This document shows positions 4,271 through 58,939 of a DNA stretch of 64,000 nt, piece by piece (the stretch's first letter is position 1; every line of letters begins with the position of its first letter). Source of the DNA: an uncultured Gammaproteobacteria bacterium (GTDB lineage Bacteria; Patescibacteriota; Microgenomatia; Levybacterales; UBA12049); the NCBI GenBank assembly GCA_964474445.1, contig CAYYSJ010000001.1:270530-334529 (forward strand). Reading direction: 5' to 3'. The notes below the pieces were generated by a model. The model did no database searches. It was not told the origin of the DNA and saw nothing but the letters and a program-made list of their open reading frames with translations. Both the position numbers and the translations under genes were made by a program.

Positions 4271-4579
4271 AAATCGTTAAATTATCAAAAAGGTTTTCTT
4301 CCAGTCTTTAGTGATTGCTCTAAAAAATTCCTGATAGGACAAATAAAATCCCAAAAAGAGCAATGTCTATAAATAGTTGTTGAAATGCCTAATACTTTTG
4401 GTGCGGTTACGTGCTGGTAAACTAAATTACCAAGGGCAAGTATTGTCAAAAAACTAAGGATAGCTATCCACCGCAAAGATAGATTACAGAAATAGTCCCC
4501 ATGTTTTTTAGAATTTTTTTTGTGTGTTCGTTTCACCTTATCTTTACTATGACGAAAAAAATGCACATCTGTCAAGAAA

Positions 4580-5146: not shown

Positions 5147-5312
5147 AGTCGTATTTTTTTAATATTTTTTTCTTTTTCCCTCACAATTATCAATTGTTTT
5201 CTTCCTCTGCCAAAATTACAGCAAATACCTTCACTTTTTACATGAGATTTTTCTTATATGCCTCTCCTGAAAAATTTGAATTAGAAGAGACAGGATTGGT
5301 ATAATACATCCT

Positions 5313-6050
5313 ATGAATCAAACAACACGTCTTGATAAATTACTTTCAAACAACGGTCTTGCTTCACGAAGGGCTATCAAGCAATTCCTAAAAGCAAATG
5401 ATGTAACTATCAATGATAAACGAGTTACTGAATCAGGAATACGAGTTAGTCCAACAGATATTGTTAAAATAAATGGAACACCTTTGAAAAAACAGGAATT
5501 TGTGTATTTTTTGCTCAACAAACCGATTGGGATTATTTCAACAACCTCAGATGAATTTTTTCGAGATACGGTCACTTCACTAATCGATACTCCTTACAGA
5601 ATTTATCCTGTTGGACGGCTTGATAAAGATACCCATGGACTCCTTCTTCTTACAAATGATGGAGAACTGACACATAAGCTTATTCATCCTCGCTATCATG
5701 TTCCAAAAGTGTATCGACTTGTTGTTGAGGGCAAACCGACAACAAATCAATTAGAAAGATTTCGAAACGGTGTCCTTTTGGATGATGGACCAACACTTCC
5801 TGCAGAGGTGCAAATCATAAAAGAAGATAATGTACAAACAATCCTTGAAGTAACGTTGCATGAAGGCCGCAACAGACAGATTCGTAGGATGTGTGAGACG
5901 TTAGGTCTTGAGCTTTTGGATTTGCAGCGTGTTGCATTTGGACCATTAACCCTGGGAAAAGTAAAGCTTGGAGACTATAGACCGTTAACGTCACAAGAGG
6001 TGAAAAGTTTACAATATGTTGTCAACCAGAATATAAAATCTAAGAACTAA
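5313..6050 (+). CDS. pseudouridine synthase, RsuA/RluB family (S4 domain + catalytic domain)
   Basis: N-terminal S4 RNA-binding region (RLDKLLSNNGLASRR), catalytic VGRLDKDTHGLLLLTNDG with Asp, C-terminal GRNRQIRRM motif. Confidence 0.85.
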   Translation: MNQTTRLDKLLSNNGLASRRAIKQFLKANDVTINDKRVTESGIRVSPTDIVKINGTPLKKQEFVYFLLNKPIGIISTTSDEFFRDTVTSLIDTPYRIYPVGRLDKDTHGLLLLTNDGELTHKLIHPRYHVPKVYRLVVEGKPTTNQLERFRNGVLLDDGPTLPAEVQIIKEDNVQTILEVTLHEGRNRQIRRMCETLGLELLDLQRVAFGPLTLGKVKLGDYRPLTSQEVKSLQYVVNQNIKSKN

Positions 6051-6067
6051 CGAGATATTCAAAACGT

Positions 6068-6781
6068 TTATACTGTCAGTAGGTGTGCATTATCATTCAA
6101 CCATTTTCTGTGTTGTCTATATGCGGGAGTAAATTGCCTCACTTTTCTCCAAAAACTATCACTGTGATTTTTTTCAGTTGTGTGTGCCAGTTCATGAATC
6201 ACAACGTAGTCAAGTACCATGAGCGGCGCCATAATAAGACGCCAATTAAATTGCAACGAATTATCAGGGAAACATGTCCCCCATTTAGACGACGTATCAG
6301 AAAATCGTACATCACCAAATGAAGCATGCATTTCTATAGCTTTTACCTGAAGACGTTTCTGAATAACTTCTTTTGCGTGTTTGAGAAACCAATCTGGTAA
6401 TTCTTTTTGTATCCGAAACTGCAATGCTTTTGGGAAAAGCAATTGACCATCTTTCAAATGAATTTCTATTCCATCATAAAAGGACAGTTTGTGTGATTCT
6501 CCAAGAAAATAAAAAATTTCTCCTTCTGTATATGTTCTTGTTGGTATAACTCGAGAAGTTACTTTCTGCAGAGTTTTCTCTATCCAACTTTCCTTCTCTT
6601 TAAGAAAATTGTTAATAACAAACTGGGGAACAAGATGAGGAGCCTTAACCACTACTTTCCCTTCTGGAGTAATATGAATGGATATTGATGCTCTGTGTGA
6701 ACGGATAACCTGTAGAGTAGGAATAGCCATAAAAGTCATTCTGTTATAGCACACTTTCCACTCTATGGCAAAAGAGGTCAC
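6068..6781 (-). CDS. YgjP-like metal-dependent hydrolase (DUF45/M48-like, HExxH)
   Basis: C-terminal WGTC...HELAHTxExNHS zinc-binding motif typical of the YgjP/DUF45 family. Confidence 0.75.
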   Translation of the reverse strand: MTSFAIEWKVCYNRMTFMAIPTLQVIRSHRASISIHITPEGKVVVKAPHLVPQFVINNFLKEKESWIEKTLQKVTSRVIPTRTYTEGEIFYFLGESHKLSFYDGIEIHLKDGQLLFPKALQFRIQKELPDWFLKHAKEVIQKRLQVKAIEMHASFGDVRFSDTSSKWGTCFPDNSLQFNWRLIMAPLMVLDYVVIHELAHTTEKNHSDSFWRKVRQFTPAYRQHRKWLNDNAHLLTV

Positions 6782-43845: not shown

Positions 43846-44034
43846 AGCGATCGATTTTGTCCCACTTGGTACCACTTTTTCCCATTTTGGACCAATTACT
43901 ACCATTGTGCGTCAAAAATTGCCCTCTTGTCAAGAAGTGTTTTCACAAGATAAACGACGAAGCGACCAAAATACACTGAGTGTGGATAGTTACAGATGCC
44001 TAAAACTAAGATTTTTTAGCATATATAGGACCTA

Positions 44035-44066
44035 AAAATAGTAGACGCCGACGTCTACCAAATACC
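44035..44066 (-). terminator. hairpin terminator-like element (minus strand) upstream of mraZ
   Basis: gtagacg-ccga-cgtctac perfect 7-bp stem, followed on the minus strand by TATTTTTAGG. Confidence 0.4.
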
Positions 44067-44229
44067 AGCAAAATTGAGGCTAAATTGATAAAAATTTTCT
44101 CTCCTATTATATAGGATATATAAAGAACAGAAAAATAAGACTAATATGGGTTATTTAAAAAACCGGATTATAAGAATCTTTAGAATTTCCAAAACAAAAC
44201 TCCAGATTTTATCCTAAAAACCTCTTTGC

Positions 44230-44257
44230 TTGACTTTGTAACGCATTGTGTTACACT
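44230..44257 (+). promoter_or_regulatory. sigma70-like promoter TTGACT-N16-TACACT
   Basis: Hexamers read directly. Positioned to drive the brnT/brnA pair, with GTG at 44264 close to the predicted TSS. Confidence 0.35.
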
Positions 44258-44263
44258 AATATT

Positions 44264-44571
44264 GTGATATTTGTTAGAAAGCTTATCTGGGATCCATGGA
44301 ATATACAGCATGTAGCACATCACCATGTAACCCCAGATGAAATTGAAGCAGTATGTCACAATGATCCATTAGTCCTAAGAGGTCAACAAAAAAATAGATT
44401 GGTACTAATTTTGGTTTAACTGAAGAAGAAAGAATACTTGCTGTAATTTTAGAATCTCAAGGACATGGAATGTATTATCCAATTACATCTTATCCAGCAG
44501 ATTCAAAAGACATAGCTTTATATAAACGCTTAAAACATAAAGGGGGTGAAAAGAACAATGACAAAAAGTAA
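44264..44571 (+). pseudogene. brnT-like (DUF497) ribonuclease toxin gene disrupted by frameshift
   Basis: Frame 1 (44264-44419): ...LIWDPWNIQHVAHHHVTPDEIEAV... matches the BrnT FxWDxxKxxxNxxKHGV block, then stop. Frame -1 (44398-44571): GLTEEERILAVILESQGHGMYYPITSYPADSKDIALY matches the BrnT C-terminal half. Frames overlap at 44398-44419, so a single indel explains it. Confidence 0.45.
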
Positions 44572-44827
44572 AAAAACAGGTAAAATTCCAACATTTGCTA
44601 ACCGTGAGGAAGAAGCAAAATTTTGGGAGACACACAGTATTGCAGATTTTACGAATGAATTAACACTTGTAAATGCACGTTTTACAAAAAACTTATCTGA
44701 AGGAATTACAATTCGCTTTGATAAGTCCACACTCAATGAACTGAGAGAGATTGCTCATAAAAAAGGACTTGGACCAACCACGCTAGCAAGGATGTGGATA
44801 TTGGAACATATTAGACAGCAAGCATAA
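44558..44827 (+). CDS. BrnA-like antitoxin (CopG/RHH-type, COG3514)
   Basis: EEEAKFWETHSIADF N-terminal motif typical of BrnA. C-terminal RHH-like region. Strong SD AAAGGGGGTGA 8 nt upstream of ATG. Overlaps toxin 3' end by 14 nt. Confidence 0.6.
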   Translation: MTKSKKTGKIPTFANREEEAKFWETHSIADFTNELTLVNARFTKNLSEGITIRFDKSTLNELREIAHKKGLGPTTLARMWILEHIRQQA

Positions 44828-45085
44828 GTATAATTTTTTAATTCTTTTTTTGGGGACATTTCGAATGTCTTCAAGCAAAAGGTGTTTTAGAGTTTATTCA
44901 TGAATTCACTATGTAACTACTCCACCACCAATGATTGCAACTACTGAATCTTTATAACTCCTGCTGAATAAGTTATATGCCTCTTATTTTCCTTGTTGTT
45001 AAGTAAGCCAGTGATTGTACCACTGTCACCGTAACTTTTCTTGTAGAACATATTCAGGATTATAGGAAGAGAAAGTTATAACATG

Positions 45086-46378
45086 CTATAACATAAAGTA
45101 TTTTCTCAGGAATACTCTTACACGATACAATAAACTTGGATGGAGTGGTTCAAGAACGATTTCCTCACTATTGTCTTTGTTTGGAGAGAGAGCAATGGTT
45201 ACTGTCTGATACCCGAGATGTTGTATGGTAAGAGAAGAGGATGAATTGCTAACCAATGGTATTTGATATGTTCCACTGAAATCTGTTGTACTGGTAAAAC
45301 CATCATTAGTCATTACACTTGTATTTGTAAGCAGATCTCCGAGAGTATCTTTTATCACCCCACGGACAAATGTAGGTTGATAGTATCCATGTAAAACCTG
45401 TGCAACAAGTCGTGGTGAATCATCATCATTGAATAACGCTGTAGATCCATCCAGAATAGTCCAATAGTTTATACCAGTAATATTTTCGCTGTGCGTATAG
45501 AACACGTGGAGAAGTTTTTCTACAAAATCTGCTTGTTCTTTTTCTGTCATAGCTCCATTGAGATCAGGAATGGGTGCACCAAATTCTCCCACTACAATCT
45601 GTGCATGAAAATGTTGTATAAGATAATCAATAGTATTTTCCATATCTCTTGGATTTGCCACGTAGTGATCTACAACAACAATATGTCCGACTTTATCAAC
45701 TGTTTCTGATGTCAATACCTGTTTGGCTACATCGGCATTCATTGAAAAATAACCACACTGAACATGCTTATGTATTTGCTGCATGCTATTTATACAGTTG
45801 TTGTATGAGTTAACTAAAAAACGATTGAACCTTACAGACTTTTCATTTGATCCTCTTGGATCCCCTTCTCCACCGTTTTCTGGCTGTGGAGTTGGAGTAA
45901 AAATATCCCCATCTTCAAATAGATCCGGATGTCTTAAAATGAATGCTTTTGTCAGTTTGTGATGTTGAGATATATCAGTAAACTTTGGGTAATCAAACCA
46001 TCCTTCCCATCCTGAAAAATTGCCTCGAAACCAAACTTTGAGATGATATCTCCTTGATTCATCCACCCATTCTTTTATCGTTGGGTAAAACTCTTCATCG
46101 TAAGGAGTTGCTATGGCAATATGAGTTGGATGGAGACTTGCGACATGCTGAACAACCAGGGAGATTTCACTTCGTGTAATACTCTTTGCTTTATCGCGAG
46201 AATATTTCATAGTGTCAATAGATGTTACTTCCCAAACAGTAGACTGCTGTTGGGACTGAGTTTTTTGAGGAATTGAAAGCATTTGCTGAGTGAAGGTAAA
46301 AATGAATAGTCCTAACCCAATAAAGACACCTCCAGCAAGAGAAATAAATTCTTTTTTGCTGTCATTTCTTTTTGCCAT
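45086..46378 (-). CDS. membrane-anchored putative glycoside hydrolase (TIM-barrel-like) with C-terminal beta-sandwich
   Basis: N-terminal TM. Central region with GH-like acid/aromatic blocks (WFRGNFSGWEGWFDYP, HIVVVDHYVAN, VVGEFGAP). C-terminal carboxypeptidase-regulatory-like domain. Family not resolved. Confidence 0.4.
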   Translation of the reverse strand: MAKRNDSKKEFISLAGGVFIGLGLFIFTFTQQMLSIPQKTQSQQQSTVWEVTSIDTMKYSRDKAKSITRSEISLVVQHVASLHPTHIAIATPYDEEFYPTIKEWVDESRRYHLKVWFRGNFSGWEGWFDYPKFTDISQHHKLTKAFILRHPDLFEDGDIFTPTPQPENGGEGDPRGSNEKSVRFNRFLVNSYNNCINSMQQIHKHVQCGYFSMNADVAKQVLTSETVDKVGHIVVVDHYVANPRDMENTIDYLIQHFHAQIVVGEFGAPIPDLNGAMTEKEQADFVEKLLHVFYTHSENITGINYWTILDGSTALFNDDDSPRLVAQVLHGYYQPTFVRGVIKDTLGDLLTNTSVMTNDGFTSTTDFSGTYQIPLVSNSSSSLTIQHLGYQTVTIALSPNKDNSEEIVLEPLHPSLLYRVRVFLRKYFML

Positions 46379-47996
46379 AATAAGATATTACATGTAATTG
46401 ATCTAGATATCGTGGATTTAGTTCGTAGATATCTGCAAACGGAAAATGTTCTATTAACGTATACTTCTTAAAGCCCGGTGATGTACGAACTACTTTAAAT
46501 GTTTGATCATTTATATCATTTGTTCGCATAACAATCCACTGTGCCCATCTATCTGGATTTTTTGTGGCACTATCCCAATACGTTCCCGTCCCCTCATGAA
46601 TGAATTTACTCATGGGAAGACCTGAAGAGAAGATAATTGCATCATGAGAAGCTGCTGAAATCAAGATGAGTCCTGGCTCATCTTTAGCGTGCTTTGCCAA
46701 CCAGGTACTTACCTCTGTAACATTTTTCTGACTTGCTCCTACTCTTGCATCATCGATAGTAACGGCATCTTTACTGGCAAAAGAAAAGAACGTGACAAAC
46801 AGCAGTAGTCCAATTAGTACGGTACGTAAAGTTTTTACTTTACCGACTAAGTATCCGACAAAAATAGCAATTGAAGGAGACATCATGATCCCATACCGAA
46901 CGTTAAACAAAGTATTTCCGGAAATACCTTGTACAAAGAGTACTGAAAAACCCAAGTAAAGAGAGAGTATATTAAAAACAAGTGGTGTCAATAATGCGAG
47001 ACTGATAATTTTGGTATTACTGCAAATCTTCTTATTCAAATAAAATATCACTGCTCCAACAGCGCCGAGAAACAAGATAAATAATCCAACATTGTAAGCT
47101 AAGGCATAGTAATATACTTTAAAGGACAACGCGAGGTTACTTTTTGTTATCAGATCTCCTGCCTGGGAAAGTTGTTCTTGCTGTGCATGTGCAGAATATG
47201 GTCCGAGAGCAAAATATAACGCATCATGAAAAATAAATTGATTCCACAAGAACCATAGTGCAATGCCAAAGCCAGCAAGAGTGATAAATAAAAGAACAAG
47301 TCCTTCTGTGGCCTTGTATCCTTTTTGTTTAAAGAACACAATCGCTATCAGTATTGTAGTAACAAAAAATAAAAACCATCCATCATATCGAATGAGTGTT
47401 GTAAGCATTATCCAAAAGCTTGCTTTTACAAAATCGATTATTTTTTGTTCCTGCTGCCAAACTAAGAGATAGTATATCCCAGCAATCATTGCTGCAAGCA
47501 ATGGAAGTTCTGTCATTGCGGTGGATTGTAAATAAAGAACATTAATATTTGCGACAAAAATGAATACGCCTACAATTCTTCCTACTATTCCCGTTTCTAT
47601 TCTCTTTAAAAAGAGAAAAATAAGAAAGCCAATTGCAACAAATGAAATCATAGACTCTAGCGCTCCTGATAAACCTGAATGCCACATACCATTGTTCCAA
47701 ATAGTTGGTATCATGAGTAAATGAGGCAATGGAAGCCAGACACTTCCTATTTGTCCAAGGCCTGGTTTGAGGCCTTCAACAACACGTCTCCCAATATCTA
47801 AATGTGACCGCGCATCATTATATGCAACTCCTAAGCCATTCGTATAATAGAAAATAAAACTGACAATTGAAATGATAATTAAAATAAAAAGTACTATTTT
47901 GGGTAGTATTTTTTCAAGATCCTGTCCCTTTATTGTGAGGATGCCCTTTGCTATCTGAATATGATATTCCAATTCAAATTGTGTTAATTTTTTCAT
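46362..47996 (-). CDS. GT-C fold membrane glycosyltransferase (ArnT/PMT-like, GT39/GT83-type)
   Basis: About 12 TM helices. First extracytoplasmic loop with Asp-containing motif (YNDARSHLDIGRR), large C-terminal soluble domain. Start set at ATG 47996, which forms an ATGA overlap with the stop of the upstream gene. Confidence 0.6.
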   Translation of the reverse strand: MKKLTQFELEYHIQIAKGILTIKGQDLEKILPKIVLFILIIISIVSFIFYYTNGLGVAYNDARSHLDIGRRVVEGLKPGLGQIGSVWLPLPHLLMIPTIWNNGMWHSGLSGALESMISFVAIGFLIFLFLKRIETGIVGRIVGVFIFVANINVLYLQSTAMTELPLLAAMIAGIYYLLVWQQEQKIIDFVKASFWIMLTTLIRYDGWFLFFVTTILIAIVFFKQKGYKATEGLVLLFITLAGFGIALWFLWNQFIFHDALYFALGPYSAHAQQEQLSQAGDLITKSNLALSFKVYYYALAYNVGLFILFLGAVGAVIFYLNKKICSNTKIISLALLTPLVFNILSLYLGFSVLFVQGISGNTLFNVRYGIMMSPSIAIFVGYLVGKVKTLRTVLIGLLLFVTFFSFASKDAVTIDDARVGASQKNVTEVSTWLAKHAKDEPGLILISAASHDAIIFSSGLPMSKFIHEGTGTYWDSATKNPDRWAQWIVMRTNDINDQTFKVVRTSPGFKKYTLIEHFPFADIYELNPRYLDQLHVISYYGKKK

Positions 47997-50212
47997 GTAT
48001 GCTCCTTTCTGATATACACTCCTGCCATAAGAATAAGGCAAGACAGAAGAAGAATTGTGTAAATAGCTACGTAGTAATTCATTGCAGAAATTTTATCCTT
48101 TAGATAAAATTGCCAAACAAAAGATTTTGAATGATCTTCCTTTAACAAATCAAGATCCCGTTCGTAGGTATATTTCTCTACTTTTCCACTTATCTTTTCG
48201 AATACAGGGACTTGGATTTGTGGTGGATTGCTATTTGAGGTTAATGCTCCTATGGTATTTACAGATAAAGACCATGCGAACGGAAGGAAAAACACCAAAA
48301 GAAAGATGAGATGTTTTTTCCATGTTTCTACTGTGAAAGCGAGAAATAAGGCACAAAGTGCGTAGGAAGGGATAAGGTATCTAGCACCAAAAGCCCATCC
48401 TCCCCATGGATCTCCCCACATCATATAGAGAAGTATGTTTATGCCAATAATGGCGATCAGTAAAGAAGCAATGGAGCTATTCTTCTTATATAAATAAATA
48501 GCCCCCCAAATACTTAAAAACATTATTGGGGTAAACCATAGTACCCCTCTATCAGGTGATAACAAAAGAATATATGCGCCATTTATCATATTTCTTGTTA
48601 AGAAAAATCCCACAGCAGATTTTTTCTTCTCAAAGGCAAGACCTTTATCGACATTACTCAGTTGAAGAAGGGTTGGTTTGCCTTTTGCGTTAATGGCAGA
48701 AACGTCCAGAACCGTTCCTGCTAATTGAAACGGACTACCATAGGAATGTGTGTTAAACCAAAAGAAAAAAACAAAAGGAATAATCATTACGGCAAAAGAT
48801 AGTATTCTCACTATTTTTATCTTTATTGTCATACTGTTTTCCATAACTCTCACATATATAATTTTTCCTAATGCAAAAATTCCTATGGGAAGCATAAAGA
48901 AAACATTCGGATTATCAACAACGGGAGAAAGTGCACATAAAAACCAGATCAACGCAAGAGACCAGATTGAATCCCATGCAATTACAGCATAAAGACTCAT
49001 GAGAATAAGAAACGTAGAGATGTGATGTTGATAGAGGGAAACAGCATAGGAAAAAGCGGGTGATCCAAACAAAAAGGCAAATGCAGCAATTGTCGCGGCT
49101 CCTCGACCTGCTCCAAGTTTTATAGCGATTTTTCTGATAAGTATGGCATTTAAAAGACCAAAAAATGCAATCACGGCAAATGACCCTACTTGTGACATGC
49201 CCAATAACTTTCCGACGGAATACCCTGGAAGGATCATAAATGATATAGCGGGAGCAAAAAGAGATACATAGTGACCATTTTTAAAACCCACGTCCGGTGT
49301 AGAAAATCGTGCAAGGGGCAGGCTTAAATATAATGAGTGATTTTCTATAAATGAGTATGTTAATGCAAATCTCCCTCTTTCTGGAGACAATTCAAATGGT
49401 CCTGAATCTCTCCAGAAAGTAGAATTAAGTGTTATTTCTGTGGGATTTCCTAAAATCCCACGTAATGACAGTGCGAGTATAATACTGCAAAAAACAATAA
49501 AGAAAAATAGGGAAGCTACTTTGTTAAACTTTGTAAATCTATGAAGAAAACGTAGAAGTATATTTCTTAGGAGGATGCTTCTCTTGTTGTTAACAAGAGT
49601 TGTCTGTATATGAGACGTGTCAGTTGCTTTTATTGTATTATTTTTTAAAACCCTGTTAAAAAATTCGAGTCGTCCCCTTACATATTCTCTTAGTGAGGAA
49701 CCATTTAAGTCTTTCTTTAATTTTTCGTATTCATATAAAATTCTTTTATCATGTTTAAATATCTGAAAAATTCTTAGTCTTTCTTTACACATACTTGTAT
49801 CTGGATCCATCAAGGAAAGTTCAACAGGGAATCCTTTCCAAGAAAAATGCCATTCTATAAAATTCTTTCTGATTTTATATGGCTTTCCAAATAGACGAGT
49901 GAATGTTAGTATGTATTTATGAAAACTTTCTTTAGGGCTTACTGTATATAAATCTATATCATTCAATCCTGCAATCTTCAGACTACTAGACCCTGCGGCA
50001 ATTATTTTCAATGTGGGAAATTGTGATTTTATTATAATAATAATGTTTTGTATTGCTTTTTGGACCAGAGGATTATATGGCCCAATTCTTACTTTTTGTT
50101 TTGAAGATAGTACAAAAGAAAATAGATACTCTCTTGGACTTTGTACAAGGAGTAGAATATCTCGTCTCATTCGTTTCATCCGTTTTTTTATTTCTGACAT
50201 GTATTTTTCCAT
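47993..50212 (-). CDS. fusion protein: GrpB-like nucleotidyltransferase domain + GT-C fold membrane glycosyltransferase
   Basis: N-terminal about 230 aa with AAGSSSLKIAGLNDIDLY (GrpB/pol-beta NTase GS...DIDL motif). C-terminal about 500 aa polytopic, ER-motif loop (LSPERGRFALTYSF) like ArnT/PMT. Start uncertain (ORF extends to 50278). Confidence 0.55.
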   Translation of the reverse strand: MEKYMSEIKKRMKRMRRDILLLVQSPREYLFSFVLSSKQKVRIGPYNPLVQKAIQNIIIIIKSQFPTLKIIAAGSSSLKIAGLNDIDLYTVSPKESFHKYILTFTRLFGKPYKIRKNFIEWHFSWKGFPVELSLMDPDTSMCKERLRIFQIFKHDKRILYEYEKLKKDLNGSSLREYVRGRLEFFNRVLKNNTIKATDTSHIQTTLVNNKRSILLRNILLRFLHRFTKFNKVASLFFFIVFCSIILALSLRGILGNPTEITLNSTFWRDSGPFELSPERGRFALTYSFIENHSLYLSLPLARFSTPDVGFKNGHYVSLFAPAISFMILPGYSVGKLLGMSQVGSFAVIAFFGLLNAILIRKIAIKLGAGRGAATIAAFAFLFGSPAFSYAVSLYQHHISTFLILMSLYAVIAWDSIWSLALIWFLCALSPVVDNPNVFFMLPIGIFALGKIIYVRVMENSMTIKIKIVRILSFAVMIIPFVFFFWFNTHSYGSPFQLAGTVLDVSAINAKGKPTLLQLSNVDKGLAFEKKKSAVGFFLTRNMINGAYILLLSPDRGVLWFTPIMFLSIWGAIYLYKKNSSIASLLIAIIGINILLYMMWGDPWGGWAFGARYLIPSYALCALFLAFTVETWKKHLIFLLVFFLPFAWSLSVNTIGALTSNSNPPQIQVPVFEKISGKVEKYTYERDLDLLKEDHSKSFVWQFYLKDKISAMNYYVAIYTILLLSCLILMAGVYIRKEHT

Positions 50213-50219
50213 ATAATTT

Positions 50220-51002
50220 TTATATTGGTAAATCTTTTGGGATAAAATAGACTTCTTCGTGATAAGGAATACGTCCATCAGGAAATAAATGCAAGAATTG
50301 TGATTGATAAGACGCGATCTGTTCTCTTTTTTTTATCAGATCTACTGTTACTACAATTTTTTGATATCCTTTTGGAGGCTTACCATAATTATTTAGCCAA
50401 ATATTATAGGGGAAATCACTATAATAGATTATGTTCTTTGATAGCGCTTTGCACACATTATGGACCAATATATGATCAACATGATTACCAATTCCCAAAG
50501 GAGCAAAAATATAATCATTTTTCACATTAGTAATTTGTTTTATTTGCTGAGTAATATTTTTCATAGTTGACCAGTCGAGGGGAGATAATCTTCCTGTGGT
50601 AATATGATATTTGTATGTAGGGTATATAACTGATAATTCAGGAATTACTGTCTCGAGCATTTGTAATAATCCGTGCTTTTCTTTCTTTCTCCATAAAGCA
50701 TCAACAAACCCCAAATTAATTGGTGAAATGTGCAGTTTTTTATATGCAGACCTATCCTCTTCACGTCTTCTTTTATATAATATACTTGCATTTTTGTATC
50801 CTAATTTTTTTAGATACCACCAAGCAGATATTGTTGATTTAACATTAGGTGCATCTGTGAAGACATTTATGACAATCAATTCTCTTTTTTTTGAAAGAGA
50901 GCTTATTAGCTGACTACATGACAATAATGCATCGTCAAGATGAGGTGACACAAAACAATAATTTGTTTTCATTCTTAAAAAAGTTCTAAGAAAGTTATCC
51001 AT
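50220..51002 (-). CDS. PIG-L/LmbE-family N-acetylglucosaminyl deacetylase
   Basis: VSPHLDDALLSC (HPDDE-type) and GNHVDHILVH (HxDH) zinc-binding motifs. Confidence 0.75.
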   Translation of the reverse strand: MDNFLRTFLRMKTNYCFVSPHLDDALLSCSQLISSLSKKRELIVINVFTDAPNVKSTISAWWYLKKLGYKNASILYKRRREEDRSAYKKLHISPINLGFVDALWRKKEKHGLLQMLETVIPELSVIYPTYKYHITTGRLSPLDWSTMKNITQQIKQITNVKNDYIFAPLGIGNHVDHILVHNVCKALSKNIIYYSDFPYNIWLNNYGKPPKGYQKIVVTVDLIKKREQIASYQSQFLHLFPDGRIPYHEEVYFIPKDLPI

Positions 51003-52101
51003 GGTGTTTAAGTATAGTATTCACAAATGTTTTGTATTTTTTTGCTATGTTATCCCATGTTTGCAATGTAACTAATTTCCTTCCCCTTTCGGACAACAAT
51101 TTCCTTAGTTTTATGTCTTTTGATAGTTTTACCATTGCTTTTCCAAACATATGTGAATTAAAAATAGGAATCTTTATAGAAACAGATTTTGGAATCCAAC
51201 GTAAACCAGGAATGTCAAAACATACTATTGGTATTCCATAGTTAAGAGATTCGAGTGCTATTAATGAGTACGTTTCATATCGTGATGGAATAACGACAAA
51301 AATTGCATTTCTCAGAAGCCTTTTTTTCTTTTCTCCTTCTATTCTTCCAACAAAAATAATATTCTTACCTAAATGAAGTTTCCTAACAAGAGATTTTAAT
51401 ATTTCCTGATCTGCTGGCATCCCTGATCCAGCTATCACAAGAGAAAAATCCAATTCATCTTGTACTGTTTTGTAACTTTCCAATAATAAATCTAGTCCTT
51501 TTTGATTTACTTCTAACCTGCCCATAAAAAGTATGTATTTTTTGTTGTTTGTACTCATTGGCTTTTCATGATGAATCCCATTAGGAATAATAGTAACGAA
51601 AGATTCAGCATTCTTTTTTTGTATGAGTGCCTTTGAATACTTACTAAGAACAATAAAGTATCTATATGTGCGTAGACCAAAATCTTCAATAACATGAAAA
51701 GGTAACTTATATTTTCTTTCCATATCTGCAGCACAAAGCATATGGACCAAGCCAATAACTGGTTTTTTTGTGACTAACTGCAAAAATCCCGTAGAAAATG
51801 GTGGAGTAAAATTCTCAATCCATACATCGAATTTCTGTGACATAGCATAGAATGGAAGAAGTAGTTGATATACAAATTGTTCAAATTGTGGATTACCAAA
51901 GGGATAACCAATCCTTTTGTAGGTAATGTTATCTATCTTCTCATCTGAACTATTTTTAAACTTTGCTGTTATAATGGACACGTCATAGCTTGAGGAAATT
52001 TTTTTTGCAATTTCGTGTATCGCAATTGCACCTCCTCCTGAATAATAAGGATTTCCAATTGAGTCGTAATTAGAGAAAATGATTGTCTTTTTTTTATTCA
52101 T
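50995..52101 (-). CDS. GT4-family glycosyltransferase (GT-B)
   Basis: C-terminal FMGRLEVNQKGLD...SRYETYSLIALESLNYGIPIV with EX7E motif. Confidence 0.8.
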   Translation of the reverse strand: MNKKKTIIFSNYDSIGNPYYSGGGAIAIHEIAKKISSSYDVSIITAKFKNSSDEKIDNITYKRIGYPFGNPQFEQFVYQLLLPFYAMSQKFDVWIENFTPPFSTGFLQLVTKKPVIGLVHMLCAADMERKYKLPFHVIEDFGLRTYRYFIVLSKYSKALIQKKNAESFVTIIPNGIHHEKPMSTNNKKYILFMGRLEVNQKGLDLLLESYKTVQDELDFSLVIAGSGMPADQEILKSLVRKLHLGKNIIFVGRIEGEKKKRLLRNAIFVVIPSRYETYSLIALESLNYGIPIVCFDIPGLRWIPKSVSIKIPIFNSHMFGKAMVKLSKDIKLRKLLSERGRKLVTLQTWDNIAKKYKTFVNTILKHHG

Positions 52102-55100
52102 GTATTTGCTACGGTACTTATTTCAGGTTCTGGAACCATTTGTACTGTCTCGCTCATAAATAGTTGTAAACTTTCTTTAGCACTCGTATCCCAGTCATAA
52201 ATTTTTGCCCATTCTATAGCGTTTCTTGATAATTGTTCTCTCAGGTTGTTATTGGTAATAATTTCAATAATCTTTTGTGCAAATGCATCAGCATTACCAT
52301 ACTCAACAAGAAAACCCGTATTGGGATTGTTAATTGAGTCACATAAACCAGGAACATCTGAAGCAATAGCAGGTGTTCCACACGCATTTGCCTCAATCGT
52401 TGTAATTCCCCATCCTTCTATCATTGATGGGTTAACTAGTACCCATGATTTTTGGAATAATTCAATTTTTTCTTTTTCAGTAATTTGTCCTAAGAAGAAA
52501 ACATTGTTTTCAATTTGTAATTTTCCTACAAGCTTTTGCATTCTCTTTTTATCTTCACCATCACCCGCAATAATAAATTGTATATCTGACATCTTTTGGA
52601 GAATTTTATCAGCCGCATGAATAAGTACCTGAAGACTTTTATAGAATTGAATTCTTCCTACGTACAAAATAATTGGTTTTTCATTCTTCTTACCAGGTTT
52701 GAATTTAGTCAAATCTACCCCATTGTAAATAATAGTTGGTTCAATAGTTGTAAGTTTATGAGATAGTATGGCTTGCTTGGTTGACGGAGAAACCGTAAAA
52801 ATTTGTGTATTTTTATACACAAGCGGCATAAGTTTTAATTCTAAAAAGGAGGCCAGCCAAGAGAAAGGAGGTATAAGGGATTTTCTAAATACTTCTTGAT
52901 GCACATGGTGAATAAGAAGAAATATTTTTTGCCTAGCGTAGAGCGGTGTAAAGAATGGTATACCATTCTCACAATCGAGAATAATATTGTAGCTATTTCT
53001 ATATTTGAATATGTAATACAAAAATGCCCAAACATACACAAAATAAAAACCTCCTCTTCTTTGTACTTCTACCCCATCAATAATTTCATGTTTTAAAGAT
53101 TTTCCATCATTGCTGCAAAATAATGTTACCAGATAACCATCTTTGATCCATCGTTTTGAAAGTTCATGAATGTATATCTCTGCTCCTCCAGCAAACTTAT
53201 GTCTTGTATCTCTCCAATTAAATATTAAAATGGCTTTCCTATCCCTGTTTACATTAGGTGATTCCTGCGAGAAGAATAATTCAAAAACATCCTTCAGATT
53301 ATTTTCAAATACTATAACGTGTTTTCGCATGAGGTGAAGTAGAACCATTCCTATGATATGTAATGCAGCAGTAGTAACCATTACTTCTACAAAATCAGCA
53401 ATACTTTGATGAATGAGTTGTAAGAGTATTATTTGTATTATTCCTAACACAAAAGCGAGTAAAGAAAATGTGTATATTTTCTTTGCTAGATAAAACGAAA
53501 CAATAATTTGTGATAGAGAAAAACAAACCAACCCTAAACAAAATACTGGTAGATAATCTGTTATCGATATTGCTTTTGGTCCAAAAAAAAGAGGGACCGT
53601 TAGATAACCAAATAAGCCGAGTACTATATAGCCAAAAGATGTTAGTAAACCAGCCGAAAGCAATGTGTACGTTAGCACGTGGTCTGAATTTTTATTAGCT
53701 CCTTCGCTTCGACTAACAAGAGGCATAATAAAGGGAAATACTAAAGAAGCTAGAAAATAAATTATTTTCCCTGTCAATGAAAGTAACGAATATTTTCCAG
53801 CATCCAAAGGTGGTAAAAAGTGTTTTGCTAAGATAACATCCAAACTCAAAAAACTTATTGCTGATAATCCTCCAAGAACAGATACTAAAAAGAATTTAAT
53901 TGGGAAACTCATTTGGTAAATAGTTTCTTTCAGGGATATATGTTTTGTCGTTAGTACTAATACAACTAATCCAAAAACAAAAGATGAAATAACAGACAAT
54001 GGAATGGAAACATACGTAAGTGAGCCACCGTAAAGAGGTGCTAGGATAAGTGCAAAAGATAATTTTATAATAGGTTCAATGACATATACGACTCCTACAA
54101 TAGCAAAAAGAAATTCCCCATACAAAAATCCCTTATTTACCGCTGTAGGAATAATGATGATAAGTAAAGGAATAAAAGAAAGGAAAACATATGGGTCGTT
54201 AATATTAAAAAAGTGCATGAATAGAGGGGAAAAGGCTATCCAAAGACAAGCAAAAAACACGGAAATGAAAAGTGATTTTTTGAATACATCTTTCCAGATA
54301 CTAAGACTTGCTCCTTTTCCATATTTCCCTACCATGTAGCTACTTTGGTGGTTAACAGTTGCACTTATAGCAGTTATCGGTATAGATAAAAAAGACAAAA
54401 AACTTCCAAGAGTGGTAATAAGTGAAAAATTTTCTAAATCTAAAACTCTCCCAAGATAGGCATTAAAAATAAAATTGAGTACATTTGCGATATTTATAGC
54501 AAGGATAAGTAAAGCCCCTTCCCAAAAAGGTTGTTTGTTTTGTAAACTGCCTATGATTTTTTCCCTCAGCGTTTCTACCGGTAAAAAAATGCTTCTTATA
54601 CCAAGAATAAGTTTTGGTATTTCCTTGTTTTTGCTTGGTTGCAAATGTAACCCATGAAGGGTTTTTTCCCAATAGTAAGGTCTGAAAAGTAATTGATACA
54701 ATGCAATAACTCCAGACCAACTAATAAGGAACCAATAGATGGGAATACAATAGACATATTTAACAAGCTCCCATTGCTCCTTTTTTGTGCATCCAAGCAT
54801 ATAGAGATATGCGAACATAAAATTCCCGAAAACTAATGAACTAAATGCAATATAGAAAACATAAGAAGGATATAATGCTTGAATAGATGGGCCAACAAGG
54901 GAAAAAAGAATAAAATAGGCAATGGTTGCAGTCCAAAGGAGTGGATTAATAAGAATAAATGCAACTTTTCCACCAATGGTAAGGTGAAAAAATAACGCAT
55001 GAATGATATTATTTTTGATAAATAAAAAATCCTCTCGTGTATGAACTAAGTATGTTTGCATATATCCTTTGATCCATCGCGATCGCTGTCGTATCCAATT

Positions 55101-56783
55101 AGCAACACTACTATTTGCTTCTTCCAAAGTAATTGATTCAATGATTGCTGTTTTGTAACCTTTCTTAAAAAGCCGTATACCCAAATCTGCATCTTCGGCT
55201 ACATTAAATGGATCCCATCCTTGAAGGTGTTTCATGTCTTCTGTTCGGAAATGGTTGCTTGTTCCACCAAGTGGAATACTAGTATGTGTCGCTTGAAGAC
55301 CAGTAAGTGTTATGTCAAACCACAAGGAATACTCAGCGGTAAAAAAACGAGTTAATAAGTTCTGGTGAGGATTGTAGTAGTTAAGCTTTGCCTGTAAACA
55401 TACAACATCTCCTGCAACTTTTTGGAATCCAAGATAAGCTTTTTTTAATTGGAATGGATCAGGGATGTCTTCTGCATCATAAATAACTACGTATTCCCCT
55501 TTTGTTTGAGAGAGTCCATAATTGCACGCTTTTGGTTTCGTTTTAGGAATTGAGTGAGGAACAATAACTGGACGAATATAGGAAGGGAGGTTTCTGTTTG
55601 TAACTGCTTCAATAAACTTTTTATCATCTTCTTCAAGGAGAAGCATGACATCAAGTTTTTCTTTCGGCCAATTAAGTTTTGCAATTGCCTCTATAAATTG
55701 TGGAATAACATCTGTTTCTTTATACAATGGACAGAGAATGGAATAGATGGGGAGATTCTCATCTTTAAGTGCGTGTAACTCATCAGGTGTTGAGAAAATT
55801 TCTTGAGGAGAATGAAGACTTCTCATAACAAGGAAAAAATTAAACAAGACATCAACAAAGTAAATAAAGCTTAAAGCGCCAATAATGCATTGTGCGGTGA
55901 AGAGTGGCTTTAGGAAAAGTCCTAGGAGTATCAATACAACGAGTAATCCAATCATTATTTTTTGTTTGCCAATAAGGGTTTGAATAGCAGATTGAGAATG
56001 ATGAAGAGTGGTATGCGTAATATATTTTCTTCTCTTATACCCCACTCCTGCTCCTTTCATCGACCCTTTATCAGTTGGAGGAAAATGAATTGGGTTAATT
56101 TTCTTTCCTTTAACTAACAATGCATTTAGTCCTATCTCAACGCTTGTCTTAAGGAGAGATACTTTTGACTTACCATTTATTCGCTGGGCGAAGATAATGT
56201 CAAAGCTTTCAACAACAAATCCTGCTTCCGTTGCACGCTGGAGGAATTCAAGATCAAATGTCCAGCCAGAGGAAGGAGCATAGGAGAGAGTCTGAAAGAC
56301 CTCCCTTTTAAAAACTTTCAACCCTGCTTGAATATCATGATTAAGGCCAAATAGAAGCTCACCAAATACATATCTAAATGAATTACTAATAAGGCTACGT
56401 ACTTTTGAGACATGTTTTTCTATCCGATTCGCAACAACAACATCTGCTCCATTCTCAAGTTTTTTGATCATTTTCGGAATTACCTCTGGAGGATATTGGA
56501 GATCTGCATCAATACATACAATATAGTCGCTCGAAGATTTTTGAATACCTTGATAAAGAGAAAAAGCTTTCCCTCTCTTTCCTTTTTTTATTTCAAATCT
56601 AATAGGATACTTTGTTTGTAGAGACTTGATAACCTGTAGGGTATTATCTGTAGAGAAATCGTCAACAAAAATAATTTCATATGACTTATTTTCTTTTACA
56701 AACGCTGTATGTATTCTGTTAACCAGCGGTGTAATATTATTTTCTTCATTCCAGACAGGAATAATAATAGTAATGTGTTTCAT
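52098..56783 (-). CDS. giant four-module glycosyltransferase: GT2 (Dpm1/ArnC-like) + processive GT2 synthase (QxxRW/TED) + polytopic flippase-like membrane domain + GT4
   Basis: Residues 5-230: IIIPVWNEE...DADLQ (GT2-A). Residues 345-590: DAED, TED, QRSRW (processive GT2 as in BcsA/PgaC/NodC), plus 4-5 TM helices. Residues 760-1160: about 12 TM helices resembling a Wzx/MOP-type polysaccharide exporter. Residues 1185-1540: GT4 with EGWGITTIE (EX7E). First ATG is at 56783; the ORF track starts at TTG 56795. Confidence 0.8.
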   Translation of the reverse strand: MKHITIIIPVWNEENNITPLVNRIHTAFVKENKSYEIIFVDDFSTDNTLQVIKSLQTKYPIRFEIKKGKRGKAFSLYQGIQKSSSDYIVCIDADLQYPPEVIPKMIKKLENGADVVVANRIEKHVSKVRSLISNSFRYVFGELLFGLNHDIQAGLKVFKREVFQTLSYAPSSGWTFDLEFLQRATEAGFVVESFDIIFAQRINGKSKVSLLKTSVEIGLNALLVKGKKINPIHFPPTDKGSMKGAGVGYKRRKYITHTTLHHSQSAIQTLIGKQKIMIGLLVVLILLGLFLKPLFTAQCIIGALSFIYFVDVLFNFFLVMRSLHSPQEIFSTPDELHALKDENLPIYSILCPLYKETDVIPQFIEAIAKLNWPKEKLDVMLLLEEDDKKFIEAVTNRNLPSYIRPVIVPHSIPKTKPKACNYGLSQTKGEYVVIYDAEDIPDPFQLKKAYLGFQKVAGDVVCLQAKLNYYNPHQNLLTRFFTAEYSLWFDITLTGLQATHTSIPLGGTSNHFRTEDMKHLQGWDPFNVAEDADLGIRLFKKGYKTAIIESITLEEANSSVANWIRQRSRWIKGYMQTYLVHTREDFLFIKNNIIHALFFHLTIGGKVAFILINPLLWTATIAYFILFSLVGPSIQALYPSYVFYIAFSSLVFGNFMFAYLYMLGCTKKEQWELVKYVYCIPIYWFLISWSGVIALYQLLFRPYYWEKTLHGLHLQPSKNKEIPKLILGIRSIFLPVETLREKIIGSLQNKQPFWEGALLILAINIANVLNFIFNAYLGRVLDLENFSLITTLGSFLSFLSIPITAISATVNHQSSYMVGKYGKGASLSIWKDVFKKSLFISVFFACLWIAFSPLFMHFFNINDPYVFLSFIPLLIIIIPTAVNKGFLYGEFLFAIVGVVYVIEPIIKLSFALILAPLYGGSLTYVSIPLSVISSFVFGLVVLVLTTKHISLKETIYQMSFPIKFFLVSVLGGLSAISFLSLDVILAKHFLPPLDAGKYSLLSLTGKIIYFLASLVFPFIMPLVSRSEGANKNSDHVLTYTLLSAGLLTSFGYIVLGLFGYLTVPLFFGPKAISITDYLPVFCLGLVCFSLSQIIVSFYLAKKIYTFSLLAFVLGIIQIILLQLIHQSIADFVEVMVTTAALHIIGMVLLHLMRKHVIVFENNLKDVFELFFSQESPNVNRDRKAILIFNWRDTRHKFAGGAEIYIHELSKRWIKDGYLVTLFCSNDGKSLKHEIIDGVEVQRRGGFYFVYVWAFLYYIFKYRNSYNIILDCENGIPFFTPLYARQKIFLLIHHVHQEVFRKSLIPPFSWLASFLELKLMPLVYKNTQIFTVSPSTKQAILSHKLTTIEPTIIYNGVDLTKFKPGKKNEKPIILYVGRIQFYKSLQVLIHAADKILQKMSDIQFIIAGDGEDKKRMQKLVGKLQIENNVFFLGQITEKEKIELFQKSWVLVNPSMIEGWGITTIEANACGTPAIASDVPGLCDSINNPNTGFLVEYGNADAFAQKIIEIITNNNLREQLSRNAIEWAKIYDWDTSAKESLQLFMSETVQMVPEPEISTVANT

Positions 56784-57142
56784 TTCTACAGACAATGCTA
56801 ATAACGATATATAGGCATTGTGTTGAACCTATGTAGGACTCTTTTGTAAGAATGGTTTTTCATACTGGCGGTTTTTATTGACTATAGGCAGACCAGTATG
56901 TAGTCCTCCTACTAAAGTAATGAGAAGTTGTTTGTCCAAATACTTTTTTCCATGTGATGGTAATGTGCTCATTTCTTTTTATGGAATTAGTATTTTCTCT
57001 ATTCTCCTTCTCGTACTATAAGTGGGACTATTAACGTTAAAATATACAGGAAGCAAGTAAAAAGAAATGATAAATATGCAACAAGTTAGTAAGAACGTTT
57101 TATAACTAAGACCATGAGAGGTTCTTTCTTCATGTGATTTTA

Positions 57143-57290
57143 CCCCAAAGCTATTTCGTACCTATTCTCTAGTACCTCACACCGCTTCCCAATATGCCTT
57201 CAATCTGGTTCCAATTTTTTTCTAAAATGTCCACACGAGGATAAAATTCTCTTATAACTTTATTCTAAGATAAATTTTGAGGCTAATTTG
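57143..57290. repeat. diverged direct repeat copy A (about 150 nt)
   Basis: About 75-80% identical to 58298-58430. Shared blocks include agtacctc(a/c)cacc, ttcccaa(t/a)ata, ttcaa(t/c)ctg(g/a)ttccaa, atgtccac(a/t)cgagg, aattttgagg. Confidence 0.55.
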
Positions 57291-57307
57291 GTTCCAATAC
57301 CTGATGT

Positions 57308-57868
57308 CTATAAACCTTGAGTTACTCTAAATGCAATTGTTCCAATATGTAGTGATTTAAAGGTATGACCAGGCTTTACTGCTGTCCCATATATCCAAGA
57401 ACGTCTTCTTTGATACATACCTTCATTTTTGGAAACAATAAGAAAACCTGTATGCTCTGAGTCTCTGGGCATTGCTAAATCCATTGCATATGAGATATCT
57501 CCAGATGTCTCAAACCACGTCTTATTTCCATGTGGACCCTCTCTATCTATCCCAAATTCTTCAATCGTATCAATAACTTGTTTCAATAATTGTGGATCAT
57601 TACTTCTCTGTAATCCTCTGAAGGCGTATCCTTTCCTCGGGTGTTCTAGCGCTTCTCGTAAAGCACTCTCTCTAGGTAATTGAGCTGCAAGGAACTTTGC
57701 CAAAGGTTTATAATCTGGCGTTATGATTTCATTATCTCTTAGATCTGAAGGAATTCTGTCTTCCTCTATAAAAAACAGATAGAATTCTCTATCCGAGGGA
57801 TTTCTTGTTTCTCCTTCGGGTGGTATTGTCATGGCTGGGATTATATCTTGATAGTAACTAAAAAGCAA
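57308..57868 (-). CDS. hypothetical protein (repeat-flanked cassette)
   Basis: 186-aa ORF, no recognised domain. Possible R / STS-like / E pattern (YAFRG, ETSGD, SKNEG) weakly reminiscent of ADP-ribosyltransferase-type toxins. Not established. Confidence 0.45.
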   Translation of the reverse strand: MLFSYYQDIIPAMTIPPEGETRNPSDREFYLFFIEEDRIPSDLRDNEIITPDYKPLAKFLAAQLPRESALREALEHPRKGYAFRGLQRSNDPQLLKQVIDTIEEFGIDREGPHGNKTWFETSGDISYAMDLAMPRDSEHTGFLIVSKNEGMYQRRRSWIYGTAVKPGHTFKSLHIGTIAFRVTQGL

Positions 57869-58024
57869 GATATTCAGTATTGTTGTTTAGTTTTAATACC
57901 TACTTGTGGTATCAGCTCAAACAAACCCGTACCTACTATGCAATACTTCCCACCCCTTCCAAATGTAGTTGTGATTATATTAACACTTATCTTTCTTTAC
58001 ATATTCATCTTTGAGGTAGTTTAT

Positions 58025-58219
58025 TTAAGAGTAAGAAGGTAAATTAAGATGTTCTTCTATACGTTTTATTTGCTTTTTCTGTCTCATTTGTTCTAAATCA
58101 AGAAGTTTTGCTGTAGTATCTACTATTTTCTTTATATGACGAATATCAATTTTAATGGATTTTAATTTTTGATCGACAACTGAACCCATCGCTTGTAAAT
58201 CATCATTAGTAAGTGTCAT
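58025..58219 (-). CDS. small coiled-coil hypothetical protein
   Basis: 64-aa ORF upstream of the 186-aa gene on the same strand. Lys/Glu-rich heptad pattern. Confidence 0.3.
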   Translation of the reverse strand: MTLTNDDLQAMGSVVDQKLKSIKIDIRHIKKIVDTTAKLLDLEQMRQKKQIKRIEEHLNLPSYS

Positions 58220-58297
58220 ATTAGATTAGTTATAACATATTCTTTGTTTTTTGTAATATTTGTTCCAATACTTCCATGTATATTATCAAAAACTAAT

Positions 58298-58430
58298 CCA
58301 CAGCTATTTTCCAGTACCTCCCACCATTCCCAAATATACCCTTCAACCTGATTCCAACTTTTATCTTGCATGTCCACTCGAGGCTAGAATTGCAAGAATC
58401 TCTTTTTGTATGGAAATTTTGAGGTTAATA
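58298..58430. repeat. diverged direct repeat copy B (about 150 nt)
   Basis: Homologous to copy A; see 57143-57290. Confidence 0.55.
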
Positions 58431-58459
58431 GGAATGGAGTAACAAAGGAGAGATGAAGT

Positions 58460-58939
58460 TTATTTTGCAGGTAAATCTACTGTTTTTTCTACTTGGTAAA
58501 TTTTCCCATCTGTCTTACTTACCTTCAGTGTCAATTTAATTGAAGAAACCACATTATCGTATCGACAGATACCAGAGGAGCATGTCCCAAACTCTCTATA
58601 CCCTATCCCTGCTGTCTTATTTCCTGGGGTCACATCAACTGTTCCAATAAGTCCCTCGGGGACTTGGGATCCTTTTACATCCTTTGTATAGGAAATTTGA
58701 TATTCAGCTGCAGTGATATCAGATGCATTATTTAGGGTAAATTTCATTGCTTTATTATCAGAACGGAAAGCAATATCAAGACCAACTGCTTCTGGAGAAA
58801 GCGCAAGAACTTGCTGAGCTTGGCTAGCCGCCTGAGTTGGAGCTGCAGTTCTTTTCTGAGATAACATAGATACTGAAACGACTGCAATAAGCACAACAAC
58901 AACCGCTGCAACAACAAGTGTAAGTTTGTTTTTTAACAT
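58460..58939 (-). CDS. membrane-anchored hypothetical protein
   Basis: N-terminal TM (LTLVVAAVVVVLIAVVSV), extracytoplasmic beta-rich domain with a Cys pair (CSSGIC). Confidence 0.45.
   Translation of the reverse strand: MLKNKLTLVVAAVVVVLIAVVSVSMLSQKRTAAPTQAASQAQQVLALSPEAVGLDIAFRSDNKAMKFTLNNASDITAAEYQISYTKDVKGSQVPEGLIGTVDVTPGNKTAGIGYREFGTCSSGICRYDNVVSSIKLTLKVSKTDGKIYQVEKTVDLPAK

Follow-up and report, generated by a model that had tools for sequence, protein, structure and literature searches.

What is the short, diverged sequence that recurs in front of successive genes on contig CAYYSJ010000001.1? In the 64,000-nt stretch of this contig that was analysed (hereafter the window), three successive minus-strand units are each preceded by one copy, located in their 5′ spacers: copy B before a 64-aa gene, copy C before a 174-aa gene, and copy A before a 47-codon open reading frame (ORF) and a giant glycosyltransferase gene. 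All three copies are on the minus strand; contigs used for comparison carry L-numbers. The repeat itself is a rare, lineage-restricted spacer repeat whose functional role is putative. The reading favoured here, at a probability of about 35%, is that it represents an essentially non-coding module of the spacers, restricted to this lineage and carried with accessory genes, which probably serves as a protein-binding platform upstream of the next promoter.

A blastn search of copy A against the whole window aligned 57162-57287 with 58304-58429 in the same orientation (128 nt, 75% identity, E=9e-16), and a repeat search of the window recovered the same A/B blocks. The existence of two diverged direct repeats, proposed in an earlier interpretation of the DNA letters (the sequence-only reading), is thereby confirmed. 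Homology between A and B reaches ~35-45 nt further toward the genes, to 57109 in A and 58253 in B (core hidden Markov model hit 58253-58342). The repeats had been described as bracketing a two-gene cassette, and A and B do flank it, but a third copy, C, lies inside it, between its genes. Copy C was found with an A/B model built without it (nhmmer E=4e-4), and a possible remnant of the first block (CCTCAAAG) lies near it at 58009-58016. The window copies are 65-75% alike, and the element, ~90-180 nt long depending on the copy, diverges from one copy to the next. Each copy had also been placed 5′ of a minus-strand gene. This holds insofar as all are co-oriented with the genes and located in their 5′ spacers, but the 47-codon ORF and ~330 nt part copy A from the start of the glycosyltransferase gene. 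A shared cis-acting or leader role of the kind suggested earlier is therefore possible, although an attenuator peptide is not supported (see below).

Conservation within the element is blocky. The A/B alignment contains 11-15-nt stretches of perfect identity, interrupted by a spacer whose length is kept (25-26 nt) but whose sequence is near-random. Only 12 of 27 columns match in this variable spacer, against 79% elsewhere (P~0.002), in agreement with the conserved blocks and variable spacers noted previously. The ~90-nt core carries a set of boxes: paired TGGRA boxes 9-10 nt apart, GGTG-GA-GTA-T, A-TAG and GGAAGTAWTGGRAAC. In copies A and B alone, the core is preceded by a 5′ extension of ~85 nt, which contains two CCTC blocks and a small hairpin; the sequence aaattttgagg was verified in both. 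The positions of the copies and of the features around them are collected in Table 1.

Table 1. Copies of the repeat and surrounding features, in window coordinates.
Feature	Position	Strand	Remarks
Copy B	58253..58429	-	5′ extension (blocks ATTAACCTCAAAATTT and CCTCGAGTGGACAT, then TTGGAATCAGGTTGAAGG), followed by the ~90-nt core
Copy C	57888..57971	-	core only; separates the 64-aa gene from the 174-aa gene
Copy A	57109..57287	-	block order as in B; 1-nt deletion relative to B and L004 at GAA-GGC (~57199)
51-codon Trp-rich ORF	58216..58371	-	in copy B; starts with MQDKSWNQVEGYIWEWWEVLENSCGL; its TGA stop and the start codon of the 64-aa gene overlap (ATGA)
64-aa orphan gene	58025..58219	-	downstream of B
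174-aa orphan gene	57308..57832	-	downstream of C
Promoter-like site TTGCTT-17-TATAAT	57840..57868	-	7 nt before the ATG of the 174-aa gene, leaderless-type layout; between core C and the gene
47-codon ORF	56829..56972	-	between A and the glycosyltransferase gene; called on Logan contigs
Giant glycosyltransferase gene	52098..56783	-	GT2+GT2+GT4 (Pfam); ATG ends at 56783; first large island gene downstream of A
Mini-ORF in B	58370..58387	+	ATG TCC ACT CGA GGC TAG; reverse complement of loop and 3′ arm of the minus-strand hairpin
Mini-ORF in A	57227..57244	+	ATG TCC ACA CGA GGA TAA
Candidate hairpin in B	58365..58396	-	CUUGCA-AU-UCUA-[GCCUCGAG]-UGGA-CA-UGCAAG; RNAalifold on A and B
Variable island, ~14.5 kb	43963..58454		all three copies at the left end; left junction ~58454; right junction bracketed ~43963 to ~44130

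A fourth copy was found in another species. The degenerate core pattern was scanned over 596 Gb of species-representative genomes, a set that does not contain the source genome, and gave four matches. One of them is real (contig CAZRBN010000058.1, hereafter L004) and comes from the same assembly as L021, one of the relatives described below. With degenerate core patterns, two Joint Genome Institute (JGI) metagenome scans gave 0 matches, the PLSDB plasmids none, and the IMG/VR viral scan 7 matches that were all chance, so that four copies are known in all (A, B, C and L004). The L004 copy consists of the core only, without the 5′ extension that carries the mini-ORF block. It occupies a non-orthologous locus and is inverted relative to both neighbouring genes, which lie on the opposite strand. 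The EamA-like gene on one side has a divergent promoter, with the element upstream of it; the 228-aa gene on the other side, which adjoins a Fic gene, converges with the element. This arrangement fits an orientation-independent site rather than a leader.

The L004 copy is 78% identical to A over 64 nt, while A and B share only 65% over the same 63 nt, which makes the paralogues older than the species split. Orthologous spacer DNA between the window genome and the genome of L004 and L021 is barely alignable (glycyl-tRNA synthetase, GlyRS, 85% aa identity). The feature is therefore real and either under some constraint or recently transferred, and it is rare and lineage-restricted.

These comparisons bear on the view that the copies are functionless duplication scars or portable homology, that is, a spacer that was copied as orphan genes were stacked at an island edge by recombination and that is slowly decaying. 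The copies do coincide exactly with the boundaries between gene cassettes, and the island at whose edge they are found is exchanged between lineages (see the L002 mosaic below). Moreover, the genes downstream of them are orphans unrelated to each other, and the 174-aa gene occurs in another context elsewhere. However, the divergence is blocky and not uniform, and paralogues that predate the species split are still recognisable where neutral spacer is not. Simple decay is accordingly considered unlikely.

Conservation also ignores ORF boundaries, which supports a non-coding module. The 10 nt that follow the shared stop (TAAAATCACA) are identical in A and L004, and GGAAGTAWTGGRAAC is common to B, where it lies within the ORF, and L004, where it comes after the stop. 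The boxes are enriched in the region as a whole: TGGRA occurs 15 times on the minus strand of 57100-58460 against 5.5 expected, and nine pairs of this box with 4-5 nt between its members were counted, where shuffles gave 0.9; copies B and C contain four of these pairs. Similarly, five of the eight window matches to the 8-mer ATTGGAAC fall within 57208-58648, all on the minus strand. Promoter-like sites of the downstream genes are located between the core and the ATG. The site before the 174-aa gene has a position weight matrix score of 9.7, at about the 95th percentile of random windows.

As a spacer module, the element would be read in the minus orientation, like all neighbouring genes, and would travel with accessory genes of this Patescibacteria lineage. 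Its boxes may form a platform bound by a sequence-specific protein, which could be DNA-binding or possibly RNA-binding. The bound protein would then act just upstream of the next gene's own promoter, situated in this genome immediately before the ATG, and so influence its expression. Several observations weigh against this proposal. No binding protein for the boxes was identified, and the spacing from the core to the next -35 varies between copies (4 versus 21 nt). The box enrichment is partly non-independent, given the homology of the copies and the use of TGG as the Trp codon in a candidate ORF. Four known copies are too few for site-conservation statistics. Finally, the minus-strand frame, open in B and L004, has a coding-like third-position excess: variable columns among A, B and L004 are distributed over the codon positions as 7/6/15, and those between B and L004 as 4/5/13 (P=0.036).

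This excess belongs to the main competing explanation, in which the repeat is a family of genes for small Trp-rich proteins (~33-51 aa, IW-x-WWEVL) with a conserved upstream region; B and L004 would be intact, and A and C would be decaying pseudogenes derived from local duplication. The 51-codon ORF of B (motif IWEWWEVL) is called by gene finders on Logan contigs, NCBI is among the listed sources of the exact sequence, and the overlap of its stop with the next start (ATGA) is in keeping with a gene. L004, at ~35% nucleotide divergence, nevertheless keeps this frame open for at least 33 codons (33-49), ending in HIWKWWEVLDSRRELALG before the stop. The two peptides are similar at E=9e-7 in a small local search, and replacements are conservative (I/M, E/D, N/S, I/V, Y/H). 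Between A and L004, 4 of the 11 changed codons are synonymous (codon positions 4/2/8, P=0.14). Three Trp codons are retained in B and L004 and two in C, and the frameshifted A has lost all three.

Other features fit a protein family poorly. Two of the three window copies are broken, with their blocks still retained. Copy C is closed by stops, and the 1-nt deletion that disrupts the B-type frame in A is real, being present in the independent assemblies L018 and L019 as well (both 100% identical; three assemblies in all). Conservation is highest in blocks upstream of the start, and further blocks follow the stop in L004. Unlike the real genes here, the 51-codon ORF has neither a Shine-Dalgarno sequence nor a TATAAT 6-10 nt before its start, and the phase bias is non-significant for most pairs. 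The 51-aa product has no credible homologue: a word-index search of 5.8e9 clusters returned only the query itself, and an exhaustive phmmer search (1.84e9 representatives) returned the query and two repeat proteins, whose scores were sums of 5-8 weak matches and which were judged spurious. Both searches have little power for a 20-residue motif. A small-protein family is thus a possible explanation that we hold tentatively, and the data in hand cannot separate it from the spacer module.

A short ORF with clustered Trp codons (W-x-W-W) 5′ of same-strand genes also recalls the trpL and tnaC attenuators. In contrast to these, the locus has no terminator/antiterminator pair and no Trp-related genes downstream. 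Two copies have a broken ORF, and in L004 it is not followed by a gene.

The sequence-only reading had centred on a different peptide, a plus-strand M-S-T-R-G mini-ORF serving as a leader peptide or attenuator, with the att sites of a 1.1-kb cassette as an alternative. The hexacodon ATG TCC ACN CGA GGN TAR is indeed present in both copies, exactly as placed before in B but 2 nt off in A (57227-57244 instead of 57225-57242). Its three differences do fall at third or stop positions, but two copies lend this little weight, and the same positions are third positions in the minus-strand frame. The mini-ORF runs antisense to all the genes, lacks promoter and ribosome-binding signals, and is not followed by a terminator-like hairpin; a leader or attenuator peptide is thus not supported. 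Its proposed conservation did not extend to the other copies either, an outcome that the sequence-only reading had itself named as refuting: the block is absent from L004 and at best unrecognisable in C, where the equivalent of the ATG is ATA.

The mini-ORF coincides with the loop and one arm of a minus-strand hairpin, and the conserved 14-mer CCTCGNGTGGACAT is the loop plus 3′ arm of this structure. The equivalent in A (57224-57251) is closed with G.U pairs, and hence forms in minus-strand RNA only. Three pairs are changed on both sides between A and B, which is weak evidence, coming from two sequences only. With the same reservation, the hairpin accounts for the conservation of the 14-mer at least as well as a five-codon ORF does.

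The hairpin would agree with each copy being a small regulatory RNA, or an intercistronic RNA element, made from the minus strand. Besides its both-side changes and minus-only G.U pairs, the CCUC and GAGG blocks could pair, and the L004 element stands alone between two opposite-strand genes. Searches for RNA signals gave a different picture. Rfam had no match at the gathering threshold in the window, and at E<=10 in 56700-58700 there were only chance microRNA- and small nucleolar RNA-type matches, outside the repeat blocks. Minimum free energy z-scores against shuffles were +0.27 and +0.21 on the minus strand and -0.29 and +0.58 on the plus strand. RNAalifold on the four cores gave -2.6 kcal/mol on the minus strand and 0 pairs on the plus strand, which is essentially no consensus structure. 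The best sigma-70 candidate within the core (TTGGGA-16/17-GAnAAT) scored 5.5-6.1, when the median best score of random 260-nt windows is 5.7, and no terminator-like sites were present in the spacers. Nothing in these RNA searches supported the pair of paralogous small RNA genes that had been suggested earlier, and an RNA element in general is regarded as doubtful at best. A sigma-54-like reading of TGGAAC-N5-TTAC/TAGC, seen by eye, was inconsistent between copies and was rejected.

The genomic context places all three window copies at the edge of a variable island. Four relatives (L016, L017, L021 and L022; GlyRS 83-85% aa identity) have nothing of what separates the 159-aa gene from mraZ in the window. 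Their gene order is DUF4012-RecO-GlyRS-(146-165-aa gene)-mraZ-rsmH-ftsL-ftsI, with no copy of the repeat at this locus. The left junction lies ~6 nt past the stop codon of the 159-aa gene, and copy B, which starts ~24 nt inside it, is the first feature of the island. In addition to copies A-C, the island contains the 64-, 174- and 47-aa orphans, the 1561-aa triple glycosyltransferase, a GT4 glycosyltransferase, a PIG-L deacetylase, three large unknown proteins and a CopG-type antitoxin. No recombinase or integrase was found when all island ORFs of 120 aa or more, and the small ORFs as well, were scanned against Pfam. The island ends share no significant direct repeat, so exchange by homologous recombination in the flanks is the simplest reading.

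A Logan contig from another sample (L002) provides further evidence of exchange. Its 158-aa gene is 97.7% identical to that of L021, and from 58519 on its DNA matches the window at 100% identity. Just upstream of that point, 23 sites differ between the window and L002 (58520-58625), most of them synonymous (compared regions: window 58454-58627, L002 1-174, L021 4923-5096). This mosaic of an L021-like 158-aa allele and window-identical island DNA puts the island on two diverged backbones. It indicates a recent island exchange between them, with a crossover within the last ~60 nt of the 158-aa gene. The more solid by-product of the analysis is thus a glycosylation island beside the dcw/mraZ cluster that is 100% identical on two diverged backbones, which shows recent island exchange in an uncultured lineage of the candidate phyla radiation (CPR).

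These data also speak to the proposal of a small cassette with the repeats as its att-like sites. The copies number three and not two, and are only 65-75% alike; the relatives lack the 14.5-kb island and not the 1.1-kb segment; and neither an end repeat nor an integrase was found. Absence of the cassette between the repeats in related strains had been suggested as a check; B-64aa-C-174aa-A is contiguous in every strain-level contig covering the region (L001, L002 and L019), with no cassette-free variant. Near-identical core repeats with a matching empty site were not found, as A and B are 75% identical and the left junction lies 24 nt before B. The window contains no tRNA or tmRNA that could serve as an att-type target. 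Even when the shared hexacodon and its third- or stop-position differences are counted in its favour, the M-S-T-R-G leader or att explanation is scarcely credible.

Known classes of repeats offer partial parallels. The attC sites of integrons are imperfect palindromes with RYYYAAC/GTTRRRY cores, and they occur next to an integron integrase. The locus resembles chromosomal integron cassette arrays (attC/Vibrio cholerae repeats) in that short co-oriented orphan genes are separated by similar ~60-140 nt repeats in a variable region; in contrast to such arrays, it has no palindrome, core sites or integrase. More precisely, the copies have no inverted repeat and no stable DNA- or RNA-like hairpin, and no RYYYAAC/GTTRRRY cores were seen on inspection. 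Repetitive extragenic palindromic (REP) sequences and bacterial interspersed mosaic elements (BIMEs) are likewise short, confined to spacers and placed soon after stop codons. However, REPs are strong palindromes in hundreds of copies, whereas the element here is non-palindromic and has four known copies.

Promoter early stem-loop elements (PeSLs), which contain a recognisable early promoter and a stem-loop, are thought to regulate genes and to supply homology for shuffling. They reportedly form the "mobile regulatory cassettes" that Arbiol et al. described in 2010 from the hyperplastic regions of T4-type phages. In both cases, diverged and co-oriented repeated spacers flank small orphan genes in a variable region. 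The present element differs in having no consensus promoter or stable hairpin, it resides in a CPR bacterium instead of a phage, and viral relatives of the cassette genes were not found.

The boxes of the core may be related to a regulator encoded nearby. In E. coli, the MraZ operator is said (Eraso et al., in 2014) to consist of direct TGGGN repeats with a 10-bp period upstream of mraZ. In the window, the sequence TGGGA-AAAAG-TGGTA-CCAAG-TGGGA, with a 10-nt period, occurs at 43860-43884 on the minus strand, just upstream of the likely mraZ start. These boxes are conserved in L021, with an equivalent AGTAGGA-AAA-AGTAGGA in L016 and L017, and probably constitute the MraZ operator. The core of the element resembles such an operator in carrying TGGRA-N4-TG(G/T)GA, with a third TGGAA in B, and mraZ borders the same island. 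The boxes are arranged as TGGGA-9-TGGGA-10-TGGAA in B, with two boxes 9 nt apart in C and L004 and two boxes 10 nt apart in A. Unlike the operator, the core therefore has a spacing of 9 nt in three of the four copies, its third box occurs only in B, and its TGG boxes can equally be Trp codons. No overall sequence homology was detected between the core and the mraZ upstream region, and the resemblance, which is one of short motifs, is a lead only.

If this lead were followed to its end, the element could be a portable junction and regulatory module of a CPR cassette-stacking system, in which a dedicated box-binding protein, possibly MraZ with its gene at the opposite island border, would both control the cassettes and mark the recombination site. 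Orphan genes would be added successively at the island edge, each bringing or copying the boxed spacer. Such a system would resemble integrons in its outcome while lacking their attC hairpins and integrase. We consider this extension very unlikely. If the element is indeed a binding platform or a small-protein gene, it would be among the very few cis-elements or microproteins described for Patescibacteria, a group in which regulation is, to our knowledge, almost unknown.

The products encoded beside the copies give few clues. The 51-, 64-, 174-, 47- and 159-aa products and the neighbours of the L004 copy had no informative match in Pfam, NCBIfam, PHROGs or PADLOC, and no viral relatives of the 64- and 174-aa genes were found. 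The 64-aa product is modelled as one long helix (AF2 pLDDT 92.6). The AF2 model of the 174-aa product is unusable (pLDDT 33), and its one homologue, a 176-aa protein at 61% identity, is on a JGI contig (3300045391) in a different gene context. Patescibacteria genes here appear to use leaderless-type promoters. A Shine-Dalgarno-like sequence precedes only 7 of the 39 long ORFs of the window, and TATAAT-like hexamers lie 6-11 nt before the ATG at many window ORFs (e.g. starts 3514, 5313, 16126, 25819 and 57832), which suggests that leaderless mRNAs are widespread in this CPR genome. A perfect 13-nt inverted repeat (TCATTTCTTTTTA / TAAAAAGAAATGA) lies between copy A and the glycosyltransferase gene, at 56969-56981 and 57058-57070, its arms 76 nt apart. 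Its 3′ arm on the minus strand includes the ATG of the 47-codon ORF, and the two arms could pair into a long-range hairpin within the glycosyltransferase operon leader.

Around the copies themselves, independent short-read assemblies (Logan) end at 58475, 58483 and 58504, before B, and at 57214 and 57237, in A and near its deletion site. These breaks hint at co-existing sequence variants. Two ideas about one of the blocks (block I) were rejected. For its derivation from the 3′ end of the ancestral 146-aa gene, the sole indication was a match to L016 that is nominal (p~0.013, uncorrected for 10 tests). Its supposed repetition at the mraZ-side junction was a 2-mismatch motif (TTTAGCCTCAATTTTG) at 44069-44084 that is not above chance. 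Right after this motif, just inside the mraZ-side end of the island, lies a strong intrinsic-terminator-like hairpin (44034-44058, minus strand; GTAGACG-TCGG-CGTCTAC followed by TATTTTT). Near the same end, 44246-44827 on the plus strand encodes a CopG/BrnA-type antitoxin (93 aa, PF12441, E=5e-10) after a 57-codon ORF that resembles a truncated BrnT-type toxin; both oppose the island genes in strand.

The closest relative found (L020, GlyRS 87%) has a 580-aa TPR protein between GlyRS and its 158-aa gene (3750-5492, 6045-6251), and an opposite-strand gene, not mraZ, comes after the latter; this neighbourhood seems to be an insertion hotspot. In the window, the neighbouring 486-aa gene encodes glycyl-tRNA synthetase, the closest relatives of which are labelled Patescibacteria or Saccharimonadales, and DUF4012 is also present. 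The metagenome-assembled genome that contains L004 and L021 (GCA_964598355.1, CAZRBN01) is titled "uncultured Gammaproteobacteria bacterium", yet it has a Patescibacteria-type GlyRS (85% to that of the window), DUF4012 and the synteny of the window, and its taxonomic label looks wrong.

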